Notes under the pieces: model-generated
What the model was told of the DNA's origin: nothing
Databases searched by the model: none
What the model saw: only the letters and a program-made list of their open reading frames with translations
In this document: piece after piece, positions 41,775-45,396 of the stretch
Position numbering within the stretch: the first letter of the stretch is position 1
Layout of the letters: each line of letters opens with the position of its first letter
DNA from: a phage
Strand: one strand, 5' to 3'
Sequence record: PZ386965.1
DNA: 64,000 nt
Position numbers and translations under genes: made by a program

Positions 41775-41816
41775 TTTATTTCCTTTCAAGACAATTCAAA
41801 GTTTATAACAAATTTA

Positions 41817-42233
41817 TTATGCAGCAACCATTTGCTTTTTGATAGCTTCAGGCAGTGATTCAATATATTCTGGAATTTTAGAAGCAACAATTTCGCCAGC
41901 TGCAATTAGTTGTTCGTCGGCATCAACACAATAGAAATCTTCCAGACGCTCAGAACCATCTTTATCAAGAACGATTTTTCCACCTGCTTCAATAGAATCT
42001 TTATAGTGCTTACGCATCAGATGAATCCACATATCAGATACATCGTTATCAATAAAACCATAAATCATAAAACGAGTTTCTTGTGGCAAAGATTGAAGCT
42101 TTTTAGCACTTGCGTCATCACAATGCAGGACCCATGCTTTACGAACACGATTATGGTTATGCGGGTTAGCGTCAGTACGGATAGAAGTAACTTTCAGATC
42201 AGCAGCGGTAAAACCTTTAGCAGTAGTAAACAT
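41817..42233 (-). CDS. rpbA: RNA polymerase binding protein RpbA-like
   Basis: 138 aa at T4 rpbA position. Confidence 0.55.
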   Translation of the reverse strand: MFTTAKGFTAADLKVTSIRTDANPHNHNRVRKAWVLHCDDASAKKLQSLPQETRFMIYGFIDNDVSDMWIHLMRKHYKDSIEAGGKIVLDKDGSERLEDFYCVDADEQLIAAGEIVASKIPEYIESLPEAIKKQMVAA

Positions 42234-42245
42234 ATTATTTCTCTC

Positions 42246-42437
42246 TTATTCGTAGAAGTCAGTAACTGTCCATGCGGAATTGCGATTAGACATTATTTTA
42301 TTATACTCATCTTTAAAAGCAGATTTGAGCATTTGTTCAGTAACAATATGTTCTTCACCTGAAAACGTATTGGTCAAAACATATTTTTTAATTTCAGGGA
42401 CAACGAGAAGATGTTGTCCGGTTGAATACTCCGCCAT
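42246..42437 (-). CDS. 45.2-like small protein
   Basis: 63 aa ORF. Confidence 0.5.
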   Translation of the reverse strand: MAEYSTGQHLLVVPEIKKYVLTNTFSGEEHIVTEQMLKSAFKDEYNKIMSNRNSAWTVTDFYE

Positions 42438-42461
42438 TATAAATCTCCGTGTTTAAAGCAA

Positions 42462-42469
42462 TATAAATA
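42462..42469 (+). promoter_or_regulatory. late promoter (TATAAATA) for HNH endonuclease gene
   Basis: exact TATAAATA on plus strand about 45 nt upstream of ATG at 42515. Confidence 0.55.
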
Positions 42470-42514
42470 GGTTTATCAATTTATCTGTTGCTGTATCAAA
42501 TAAGGATTTAGTAA

Positions 42515-43231
42515 ATGAATTATAACTCAATATACGAAAAGCTTATTACCAATGCTAAATCAAGAAGTTTAGATGGTTATACAGAACGTCATCACATTAT
42601 ACCACAATGTTTAGGTGGAAGTGATGATGCTTCAAACTTAGTAGACTTAACACCAGAAGAACATTATTTGGCACATCAACTGTTGGTAAAAATCTATCCA
42701 GATAATGCCTCTTTAATATACGCTGCTCGTATGATGACCATATCATCTCCTAAAGCAGATAGAAGCAAAAACAAATTATTTGGATGGCTTCGTCGTAAGA
42801 ATCAAGAAGTTCAAAAGAACAAAGAATTCACGGCTGAAACCCGTAAGAAAATGTCCGAGTCTGCAAAAAATAAACCAAAGATTACCTGTCCACATTGTGG
42901 TTTAACTGGAACTGAAGGAAACATGCGTCGTTGGCATTTTGATAATTGTAAACAAGGTCCAACGCCTAAAATAGTAAAATTATCTGATGATGAAAAACAG
43001 AGGATAAGTTCTAAACTTAAAACAATAGAGTGGAAACTCCACACATGTGTACACTGTGGTCTAGAAGGAAAAGCTTGCAATATAGTTCCTCATGAGAAAA
43101 ACTGCAAACTTAATCCTAATAGAATAAAACCTAATGTAACAATAGTGGAATGTCCATACTGCTCTAAAAGTGGTTCTATATCAAATATGAAAAGATGGCA
43201 TTTCGATAATTGTAAATATAAGCCTCATTAA
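42515..43231 (+). CDS. free-standing HNH homing endonuclease with three Zn-finger-like repeats
   Basis: HNH motif ERHHIIPQCLGG..SNLV..EEH..AH; three C-x2-C...H-x-D-N-C repeats; SD AAGGA; opposite strand. Confidence 0.75.
   Translation: MNYNSIYEKLITNAKSRSLDGYTERHHIIPQCLGGSDDASNLVDLTPEEHYLAHQLLVKIYPDNASLIYAARMMTISSPKADRSKNKLFGWLRRKNQEVQKNKEFTAETRKKMSESAKNKPKITCPHCGLTGTEGNMRRWHFDNCKQGPTPKIVKLSDDEKQRISSKLKTIEWKLHTCVHCGLEGKACNIVPHEKNCKLNPNRIKPNVTIVECPYCSKSGSISNMKRWHFDNCKYKPH
42515..43231 (+). mobile_element. probable mobile homing-endonuclease insertion between 45.2 and 46
   Basis: single opposite-strand gene in a conserved replication-gene block. Confidence 0.45.
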
Positions 43232-44916
43232 GAGGCTTTCATCACAGTAAATCGTCCAACTTTGCTCATTTGAAGATGTTGTCCATAAGCTTGTGGGTCA
43301 TGGTCTCTGTGACTAATTATAAACACGTTTGCATCGGTTAGAGAGTTAAGAATTGTTGAAATAGCTTTAATACCTTCAGAATCAGTCGCGGAATCCATGA
43401 CTTCGTCCATAATTAATGTATTGATTCTAACACCAGAGACCTTTTCAGCAATATCTCGCCATGTAAACAACAATGCGATATCGATACGTGCCTTTTCACC
43501 TTGACTAAATGAAGCATAACTGAACTCTTCACGGCCACGTGATTTTATAGATTCATTGAATTCTTCATCAATAGAAAACACGTAATCAGCTTCCATGATT
43601 TTAAGGTAATGGTTAATCTGCTTGTTGAACAGAGGCACATATTTTTTAATGATAGCACCTTTAATACCAGAATCTTTTAACATATCTGTGATAATACCAC
43701 GATGGTATTTTTCAAGAACGATATCTGATTTTGTTTTAATGATTTTATCAAGTTCTTTTTGAAGCAAAGCTATCTCATCGGCATGGTCGATAAATTCCGC
43801 CGAGGCTTGTTCTATTGCAGCTTTAACTTTCTTAGCTTTATCAATAGTGGCAATCATTGCTTGTTTCTTGGTACGAATATCAGATGCAAGGTCCTGTTTA
43901 GTCTTAACATTAGCTCTATATTCGTCCACTAGGACACTCAGATTATCTCTGTGACATGTAAGTTGCTCGAATGAGTGATTACATTCATGAAGCTTATCGG
44001 TAATCTTAGAGACAATAGGATCACCCTGGTGCAACTGTGATGCACAAGTAGGACATGTACCGCCATCATGATACATCTTAATAACTTTGTTATATGAGTC
44101 AATTTTAGATTTAATCAAGAATGCTTCTTGTCCGATCTTGTTGAATGCCTCAGTAGGGTCTTCGTCAAGAACGATATTAAGTAGACGCTCATTAGCTTCT
44201 TCGATTTCTGCTTTTAATGAACGAGCTTCTTTGGCTAGGTCGTCATACATATTCTGTAGACGCGCTACATTATCACCAGATAATTTCTTTTGACGTTCGA
44301 TATTCTCGTTATAAATCTTAATTTGTTGGATAACACCATCTTTCTTGGCATCGAGAACTTGTCCCTGGGAATTAAGTTCTCGAACTTGAGACTTATTGAT
44401 TTTATCCATTTCAGCAAGTGTGCCGACTTCTAAAAGGTCTTCGACAAGTTTTCTACGAGCAGGGGTGCTAAGAGCCATGAAAGGGGTATACCCTGCCGTC
44501 CCAAGCACAACGATCTGTTTAAAAGACGCGTATGACATTCCGATGCTACGTTCAAATTCTTCTTGGAAGTCACGACTGCTGGCAGATTCATCGAGACGAA
44601 CACCGTCAACGGAGATTTCGAAAATATTGGGCTTTTGGCCACGTTTAATGAAGTATTTTTTATCATCGAATTCCATCCAAAGCTCAACTAAGAGCTCTTT
44701 CTTGTTCGTGCTATTAATGATTTGTCCTTTCTTAACATCACGAAATGGTTTACCGAAAAGTCCGAAAGTAATGGCTTCTAACATCGTAGATTTACCACCG
44801 CCATTTTTACCAGTGATTAATGTTTTTTGGACTTTATCTAATTGGATATCAATAGGATTCCCACCTACCGACATGATGTTTTGATAACGAACACGATTTA
44901 ATTTAAATGATTTCAT
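43228..44916 (-). CDS. 46: recombination endonuclease subunit (Rad50/SbcC-like)
   Basis: 562 aa; Walker A GKNGGGKST, coiled coil, C-terminal D-loop region. Confidence 0.9.
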   Translation of the reverse strand: MKSFKLNRVRYQNIMSVGGNPIDIQLDKVQKTLITGKNGGGKSTMLEAITFGLFGKPFRDVKKGQIINSTNKKELLVELWMEFDDKKYFIKRGQKPNIFEISVDGVRLDESASSRDFQEEFERSIGMSYASFKQIVVLGTAGYTPFMALSTPARRKLVEDLLEVGTLAEMDKINKSQVRELNSQGQVLDAKKDGVIQQIKIYNENIERQKKLSGDNVARLQNMYDDLAKEARSLKAEIEEANERLLNIVLDEDPTEAFNKIGQEAFLIKSKIDSYNKVIKMYHDGGTCPTCASQLHQGDPIVSKITDKLHECNHSFEQLTCHRDNLSVLVDEYRANVKTKQDLASDIRTKKQAMIATIDKAKKVKAAIEQASAEFIDHADEIALLQKELDKIIKTKSDIVLEKYHRGIITDMLKDSGIKGAIIKKYVPLFNKQINHYLKIMEADYVFSIDEEFNESIKSRGREEFSYASFSQGEKARIDIALLFTWRDIAEKVSGVRINTLIMDEVMDSATDSEGIKAISTILNSLTDANVFIISHRDHDPQAYGQHLQMSKVGRFTVMKAS

Positions 44917-45152
44917 ATGTATTCTCTTCGAATGAAGTCCTCTACATATTTTAACATGTCATCTCTATCAGCAAAATACTCATCTAGTTCTGCATACATA
45001 ACAACACCTGGTGCGTACTCACAGGTAACATACATTGTTCCAAAGAAACGAGGAGTTGTCTCCTCGTAATTCTCAGTCCATTCAACGATACCAATATAAC
45101 CGTCACCAATACTAAATTCGTGACGATGGATTTCATAGTCAGTCTTCGTCAT
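44913..45152 (-). CDS. hypothetical protein (46.1 position)
   Basis: ORF; start likely internal Met. Confidence 0.45.
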   Translation of the reverse strand: MTKTDYEIHRHEFSIGDGYIGIVEWTENYEETTPRFFGTMYVTCEYAPGVVMYAELDEYFADRDDMLKYVEDFIRREYI

Positions 45153-45396
45153 TATACGCATCCTCGATACACGCTTCAGCCATTTTAAGAATAGAGCCAG
45201 GAGTATCATTGTCCATTATATTAAAGCTAAATTCAATAGCCCAGTCGGTACAGACATGAACGGCTTTAACTTCATTGCCTTCAACGCGTAATGGCTCAAT
45301 CCAATACTTGATAGTGTTCTCGAATCCATCATCATCTTTAACGTCTATTTCAACTTCAAGCCCGAGCCCAGCATTATTAAATTCATCTAAAGTCAT
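45139..45396 (-). CDS. hypothetical acidic protein, 85 aa
   Basis: ORF. Confidence 0.45.
   Translation of the reverse strand: MTLDEFNNAGLGLEVEIDVKDDDGFENTIKYWIEPLRVEGNEVKAVHVCTDWAIEFSFNIMDNDTPGSILKMAEACIEDAYNDED

Follow-up and report, generated by a model that had tools for sequence, protein, structure and literature searches.

A Predicted Mob-Family HNH Homing Endonuclease Gene at the 45.2/46 Junction of an RB69-like Phage

1. Introduction

The 64-kb stretch of DNA analyzed here (the window) belongs to an RB69-like T4-type coliphage of the genus Mosigvirus; its region 41800-44000 is 98.8% identical to Mosigvirus mar005p1 (OZ035759.1), and the parts of that region shared with RB69 show about 98.6% identity to RB69. 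Here, a single intact gene runs on the plus strand between genes 45.2 and 46, and it raises the question of what it encodes, how it came to occupy this junction, and whether it is kept for its own propagation or for the benefit of the phage. We consider it very probable, with some room left for doubt, that it is a free-standing homing endonuclease gene (HEG) of the T4 Mob family (HNH, His-Me finger) specialized for the 45.2/46 junction of T4-like phages. The case for homing here is built from homology, from the presence of the gene in some genomes and its absence from others at a single fixed site, from signs of purifying selection and mosaicism, and from divergence out of step with that of gp46.

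A first reading of the letters alone (the sequence-only reading) had described the gene as the only sizeable one on the plus strand, lying between 45.2 and 46 with its stop converging on that of gene 46, and the description holds. In a survey limited to open reading frames (ORFs) of at least 90 aa (98 in the window), the HEG alone among those on the plus strand is not nested in a minus-strand gene, the remaining ones either overlapping a minus-strand ORF, mostly a longer one, or being short gap ORFs with a non-ATG start; of these, four were searched against PHROG and none had a match, in contrast to the minus-strand ORF that one of the four overlaps. The converging stop codons of the HEG and gene 46 overlap in the palindrome TTAA (43228-43231). 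The range 42438-43231 originally assigned to the gene is right for the ORF that it contains, but not for its start: 42438 is the first base past the 45.2 start codon, and the range comprises the intergenic leader together with the ORF. The 3′-end sequence of gene 46 is ACAGTAAATCGTCCAAC, and 46.1/46.2 are retained in the window (44913-45396). The features discussed below are collected in Table 1.

Table 1. Features of the 45.2/46 junction in the window, of the encoded protein, and of same-site genes in other phages
Feature	Position	Strand	Remarks
rpbA	41817..42233	-	left side
Gene 45.2	42246..42437	-	left neighbor; N-terminus altered by cassette
HEG cassette	42433..43238		806 bp; replaces 67 bp of RB69-type 45.2/46 intergenic region
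MotA-type middle-promoter motif	42436..42460	-	TGCTTTA-N12-TATAAT; back to back with late promoter motif; toward 45.2/rpbA
T4-type late promoter motif	42462..42469	+	TATAAATA; 45 nt upstream of ATG, -53 to -46 from A of ATG
Ribosome-binding site	42502..42506	+	AAGGA, read from sequence; 8 nt between site and ATG
HEG coding sequence	42515..43231	+	intact ORF, ATG start, 238 codons, 238 aa
Variant block, fingers 2 and 3	42961..43195	+	relative to commoner a20/ST0-type allele
Inverted repeat	43220..43238		AAGCCTC-ATTAA-GAGGCTT, perfect 7-bp; centered on TTAA shared by both stops
Gene 46	43228..44916	-	right neighbor; last three residues altered by cassette
HNH nuclease domain	about residues 1-100		HEG protein
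Helical linker	residues 105-120		HEG protein
C2HC finger 1	residues 122-146		C125-x2-C128-x12-H141-x3-C145
Helix	residues 158-170		HEG protein
C2HC finger 2	residues 175-198		C178-x2-C181-x11-H193-x3-C197
C2HC finger 3	residues 210-234		C213-x2-C216-x12-H229-x3-C233
Dhakavirus IME281 (AWD91232.1)	45.2/46 site	antisense	66% aa identity
Tequatrovirus fFiEco06 (AUV60917.1)	45.2/46 site	antisense	59% aa identity
Klebsiella phage RCIP0009	45.2/46 site	antisense	47% aa identity
Cronobacter phage leB, Pseudotevenvirus (AOG16184.1)	45.2/46 site	antisense	45% identity; annotated "putative Mob-like HNH homing endonuclease"
P0003, 100-kb metagenomic T4-like contig	45.2/46 site	antisense	77% aa identity

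2. Occupied and Empty Sites

Set against the RB69 locus (L001 1134..1200), the gene is seen to be carried by a discrete cassette with a GC content of 33.4%, compared with 37.0% for the window as a whole. Both neighboring genes are changed at the ends that meet the cassette, 45.2 in its first codons and gene 46 in its last three: the N-terminus of the 45.2 product reads MAEYSTG in the window and MEYSTG in RB69, an Ala codon having been added after the start, and the C-terminus of gp46 reads ...FTVMKAS in the window and ...FTVMTVS in RB69. The 45.2 start codon, the 45.2 ribosome-binding site, and the gene 46 stop are all supplied by the cassette, and a remnant of ancestral intergenic sequence, CGTGTT(T)AAAGC together with CATTATAA, adjoins the late promoter motif. 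The empty site of RB69 itself holds a strong intergenic hairpin, GATGTGGTTATAATGACCACATC (L001 1150-1195, minus strand; dG -13.3, z -4.8), which includes the -10 box of a middle-promoter-like element and is mostly removed by the cassette; T4 has an inverted repeat at the equivalent place.

The sequence-only reading had proposed comparing the 45.2-46 junction among related phages, and that comparison shows the HEG in 14 of the 263 phage records that match the region and an empty site in most of the others, including RB69, HX01, and the original vB_Eco_mar005P1 isolates, with flanks that are about 98% identical; RB69 had been predicted to lack homing endonuclease genes by Petrov et al. (PMC2993671). 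When nine occupied genomes were aligned with six empty ones, no fixed allele outside the cassette separated the two groups, and the flanks displayed no co-conversion signature in the form of fixed differences, reduced diversity, or a carrier haplotype, flank diversity being equal in the occupied and empty groups. Co-conversion tracts, if any, are thus short or erased. The sole positive sign of co-conversion comes from the comparison of the window with OZ035759.1, in which 331 of 14,202 positions differ (2.3%) and none of these falls within the 893 bp from 42581 to 43473, a tract that spans the 3′ part of the HEG, the right junction, and the end of gene 46, and that looks like the product of a recent exchange.

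Other variable places were seen in the course of these comparisons. The segment 48000-48250 is a local hypervariable spot, with 23 differences from OZ035759.1 (L009) in 250 bp against about 5 per 250 bp elsewhere. In two of the carriers, phages F2 (L010 4604-5201) and G2469 (L011 4604-5201), a second gene, annotated as "MobD-like homing endonuclease" in the former and "hypothetical protein" in the latter, replaces 46.1/46.2 beyond gene 46, which in these two phages is flanked on both sides by endonuclease genes. Between gene 45 and rpbA, phage G2285 (L013 609-1498) has two additional ORFs that neither the window nor RB69 contains, which makes this another variable junction nearby.

3. Protein Architecture and Family Assignment

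The protein opens with an HNH motif at residues 22-54, ERHHIIPQCLGGSDDASNLVDLTPEEHYLAH, in which E24, H26, H27, P30, C32, G35, N41, L45, H50, and H54 show no substitution among 104 aligned homologues drawn from public genomes and metagenomes; the N-terminal HNH motif of the sequence-only reading is thereby borne out. When a profile was built from these homologues, residues 23-52 lined up with the HNH core of EcoKMcrA (E 0.008), and the HNH of a group II intron maturase and that of Cas8-HNH matched over the same stretch. Searches of Pfam and NCBIfam returned sub-threshold matches only (HNH, HNH_5, and IscB), with E values of 0.013 and 0.022 for the Pfam HNH models, and the window protein has no match to NUMOD3, which is present in many homologues.

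The nuclease domain is followed by three C2HC modules separated by helical segments (Table 1). The AlphaFold (AF2) model built on the 104-sequence alignment has a mean pLDDT of 93.7 and renders each of the three modules as a beta-beta-alpha finger, with two short strands and a helix, at pLDDT above 90. Three modules had been recognized from the letters alone, each with the signature WHFDNCK; the number is correct, but the signature occurs only in fingers 1 and 3, which end in RWHFDNCK, finger 2 having PHEKNCK instead. The repetition reported at the DNA level was likewise recovered, as two copies of the 21-nt repeat TGGCATTTYGATAATTGTAAA at 42932 and 43196. Across the 104 homologues, finger 3 is the only one with family-wide invariant zinc ligands, all four of them. 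The three modules are predicted from the model to form a C-terminal DNA-binding region apart from the nuclease domain, which is a feature of the Mob class, defined by Barth et al. as an N-terminal HNH domain combined with a C-terminal zinc finger (PMC10448857).

Comparisons of the full protein place it in the same class. It matches PHROG 655 "homing endonuclease" (E 3e-66), shares 34% identity with T4 MobE over 99% of its length (tblastn, E 1e-26), and has homologues in 1116 phage records (tblastn). A Foldseek search of predicted viral structures (BFVD) gave 86 matches at E ≤0.001, including models of T4 MobB (4e-10), MobC (2.8e-8), and I-TevIII as well as many "Mob-like" entries. Nothing significant was found when the whole AF2 model was searched against solved structures, probably because the model is a string of small domains, nor in a single-sequence search of the PDB sequences. 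All comparisons agree and support membership in the T4 Mob family (HNH), and the initial attribution of a free-standing homing endonuclease architecture fits with PHROG 655, the MobE homology, and the BFVD matches to MobB and MobC. The gene would then be an ordinary selfish HEG of a well-known kind, a supported reading under which nuclease activity is predicted, and near-identical copies are already labeled homing endonuclease in several public records.

4. Expression Signals

The exact late promoter motif that had been noticed about 45 nt upstream of the gene is present, and TATAAATA has no other plus-strand copy in the 64 kb. Its total count in the window is 4 against 6.8 expected by chance, so the motif alone is not significant and the support for it comes from its conservation in orthologues: in the genes of Mosigvirus, Dhakavirus, and Tequatrovirus it precedes the ATG by 41-53 nt (-44 for the Dhakavirus orthologue, -41 for that of Tequatrovirus) and is followed by a conserved leader, and it is degenerate (CTTAAATA, CCTAAATA) in the Klebsiella and Cronobacter phage orthologues. 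TATAAATA is therefore a plausible late promoter of the HEG. The leader around the AAGGA ribosome-binding site is itself conserved across genera. An RNA hairpin hiding the ribosome-binding site, as reported for mobE, was considered and rejected, the leader folding no better than shuffled sequence (z = 0.04).

Back to back with this motif stands a putative middle promoter pointing the other way. The pattern TGCTTTA-N12-TATAAT is strongly enriched, with 13 copies in the window for 1.6 expected, most of them on the minus strand, and the copy in the cassette has its -10 box over the 45.2 start codon, as a result of which its transcripts would probably skip 45.2 and serve rpbA and gene 45. The near-copy in RB69, cGCTTTA-N12-TATAAT, sits 27 nt farther from 45.2, and its transcripts would include the 45.2 leader. 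In carriers, 45.2 may rely on transcripts that read through the antisense HEG. Read-through of this kind, from gene 46 toward 45.2, would pass two minus-strand terminator-like hairpins with T-rich tails within the HEG coding region (42828-42846 and 43030-43042); a scan of 2 kb found three terminator-like sites against 1.0 expected.

The inverted repeat at the converging gene ends folds with a dG of -10 kcal/mol on the plus strand and -14 kcal/mol on the minus strand (z -4.5 and -5.1). IME281 has the same stem, and fFiEco06 has another stem at the equivalent position. A consensus scan called no intrinsic terminator at the converging ends, the hairpin having no clear T-run; it is likely a 3′-end hairpin for both transcripts, with a putative role as terminator.

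5. Movement, Selection, and Competing Explanations

The same junction is occupied well beyond Mosigvirus: at least four further T4-like lineages have a HEG homologue between 45.2 and 46, in antisense orientation to the two genes (Table 1). In all of the occupied genera, divergence of the gp46 tail sets in directly after the conserved KVGRF, and 45.2 of the occupied Tequatrovirus reads (M)AEYSTG from a GTG start, whereas T4, with an empty site, has no inserted codon. The identity of the HEG compared with that of gp46 is 59 versus 81% for Tequatrovirus, 66 versus 66% for Dhakavirus, 77 versus 68% for the P0003 contig, and 48 versus 40% for the Klebsiella phage; HEG divergence thus does not track gp46 divergence, and this pattern fits movement of the gene between genomes. 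Within the closer relatives, the left flank of ESCO47 is 83% identical to the window and the 5′ part of its HEG 96%.

The gene is under strong purifying selection. Codons 1-148 of the Mosigvirus alleles have a dN/dS of 0.04-0.07 (dS up to 0.22), and the HEG is intact in each of the nine alleles compared, a combination that speaks for sustained constraint and against a fresh one-off insertion. The sequence-only reading had taken the gene for a likely recent mobile insertion, and of this the mobility is upheld by the empty sites of RB69 and most Mosigvirus genomes amid flanks of about 98% identity, while the recency is upheld only in part, given that the alleles have diverged to a dS of up to 0.22, roughly as far as the flanks, and that the same site is occupied in other genera. 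The HEG is best read from these comparisons as an old circulating element rather than a one-off new arrival; and since it is found in no more than 14 records, with an allelic divergence close to that of the flanks, it is not currently sweeping.

Constraint and persistence of this kind would also be expected of a domesticated Mob-like protein kept because it benefits the phage, for example by cutting the DNA of competitor phages, and so excluding them, without copying itself in, or by acting as a DNA-binding regulator of the adjacent divergent promoters. The low dN/dS and the long residence of the gene at one site across genera are compatible with such a role, as are the middle and late promoter motifs lying back to back and the ancestral remnant beside the late promoter, which could act as an operator in the way known from I-TevI, an enzyme that represses its own late promoter (reviewed in PMC2988022). 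Yet a generally useful gene should be commoner than 14 of 263 records, the divergence that does not follow gp46 and the mosaic flanks are signatures of movement, the invariance of the catalytic residues argues against a mere binding protein, and exclusion is in any case compatible with homing in T4 endonucleases; we therefore consider domestication unlikely.

Still less probable, to the point that we give it little credence, is an inactive relic, that is, an intact ORF whose product no longer cleaves and which persists since its deletion would harm the ends of 45.2 and gene 46 or an embedded promoter. The dependence of both neighbors on the cassette for the 45.2 start codon and ribosome-binding site and for the gene 46 stop, and the middle-promoter motif that the cassette carries for downstream genes, would provide a reason for retention, and embedded promoters are known to favor the retention of endonuclease genes (PMC2988022). 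A relic should, however, have accumulated replacement changes and frameshifts, whereas dN/dS stays at 0.04-0.07 with dS up to 0.22, nine of nine alleles are full length, and the catalytic residues and the zinc ligands of finger 3 are invariant in the 104 homologues. Finally, a packaging-associated or general HNH nuclease of the terminase-linked kind, suggested by the structural and profile matches of the HNH core to non-homing enzymes (GVE2 HNH, McrA, and Cas8-HNH), can be set aside almost entirely, because the gene lies in the replication/recombination region away from the terminase genes, its full-length relatives are Mob-type endonucleases, and the genomes with an empty site, which make up most of the relatives and show the gene to be dispensable, effectively refute it.

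6. A Variant Finger Block

The window allele is identical at the protein level (100% aa) to that of OZ035759.1, and both differ from the commoner a20/ST0-type allele in a block that covers fingers 2 and 3. Within the block the identity to the a20/ST0 allele is about 54% for DNA and about 45% for amino acids, whereas identity outside the block is 96-100% for the DNA of the gene and its flanks and 97-100% for the N-terminal part of the protein, a discontinuity which implies that finger modules have been exchanged between alleles at the same site. In the phage collection, the block has a DNA match in OZ035759.1 only, and a search for its donor gave no further DNA match; the nearest protein block (70% aa) is that of P0003, a T4-like contig with a HEG at the same site. 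Domain shuffling among phage homing endonucleases has been reported by Barth et al. (PMC10448857).

One may speculate, although we think it improbable and would not build on it, that the three tandem C2HC beta-beta-alpha fingers constitute a modular, exchangeable DNA-reading array like eukaryotic C2H2 arrays, and that the swapped finger 2-3 block is the outcome of retargeting in nature, or of an arms race against variants of the target site, by an element that keeps to the one junction. If this were true, such phage endonucleases would provide compact specificity modules that can be swapped and are joined to a nickase.

7. Comparison with Known Systems

T4 MobE, encoded between nrdA and nrdB, resembles the window protein in being free-standing between conserved genes and overlapping the end of a neighbor, and the two have the same N-terminal HNH (HHIIPxCxGG...NLV.L...EH..AH) and the same C-terminal C2HC finger (CPHCxK...RWH(F/Y)D(N/K)CK). 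They part in the middle of the protein, where MobE, with its one finger, has EETRxKMS-type helical repeats in place of fingers 1 and 2, and in their expression: mobE lies on the same strand as its neighbors, has no promoter of its own, and relies on upstream transcription (PMC2790892), whereas the HEG of the window is antisense to its neighbors and has its own late-promoter motif. They also appear to differ in the protection of the carrier. MobE has its target in nrdB, at a distance from where its gene is inserted, and polymorphisms in the flanks protect the carriers (PMC2790892); in the window no flank polymorphism splits carriers from non-carriers, and disruption of the site is the more likely means.

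The Mob-like genes of IME281, fFiEco06, leB, and a20 (WBF82730.1) have the same site, orientation, and three-finger layout as the HEG of the window, encode 236-239 aa, and are 45-81% identical to it, and the closer of the 45.2/46-site genes share the late-promoter motif and the conserved leader. The window allele is set apart from the other same-site genes by its different finger 2-3 block, which matches only OZ035759.1. In the literature searched, we found neither an experimental characterization of the IME281, fFiEco06, leB, and a20 genes nor a study of the 45.2/46-site gene lineage.

HNH homing endonucleases of T-even phages, the class predicted for the HEG product, also include Hef of phage U5 and I-TevIII. 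The zinc-finger part of the window protein (residues 156-236) has 44% identity to translated U5 DNA from the nrdB region where Hef has been described, and the I-TevIII model matches the window protein structurally; the insertion sites and targets of Hef and I-TevIII are different, and I-TevIII is intron-encoded. With the two-domain HNH enzymes of the I-HmuI type, which have nicking chemistry (PMC2790892), the window protein shares an extended layout with a nuclease domain and a separate DNA-binding part. No significant match to this type was obtained from the sequence or the structure of the window protein. I-HmuI is not known to use C2HC fingers.

8. Proposed Mechanism and Implications

The homing cycle that we propose draws on analogy with MobE, in which an HNH-dependent, strand-specific nick in nrdB of T2 leads to gene conversion and homing (PMC2790892); by this analogy, enzymatic activity, the choice between a nick and a double-strand cut, the target site, and late expression are all assigned provisionally. 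Transcription by RNA polymerase with the late sigma factor of the phage would start at TATAAATA late in infection and yield the 238-aa protein. Its three C2HC fingers and helical linkers would bind, in a co-infecting relative with an empty site, a long stretch of DNA that lies at the gene 46 3′ end or beside it and takes in adjacent intergenic sequence, the N-terminal HNH domain would nick or cut nearby, and T4-type recombination-dependent repair from the occupied genome would copy in the 806-bp cassette. The carrier would be immune because the 67-bp segment replaced by the cassette would constitute all or part of the target: as no fixed flank differences exist outside the cassette, carriers, if the enzyme is active, are most likely protected by target disruption.

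The value of the finding lies mainly in annotation and in phage genome evolution, and current understanding is unchanged by it. The HEG marks a genetic-exchange boundary beside genes 46 and 47, the essential recombination nuclease genes. RB69, reported as predicted to be free of HEGs (PMC2993671), and its close HEG-carrying relatives offer a convenient natural pair of recipient and donor, and the 45.2/46 lineage, with two alleles that differ only in fingers 2 and 3, could be used to probe the role of zinc fingers in target choice by HNH enzymes.
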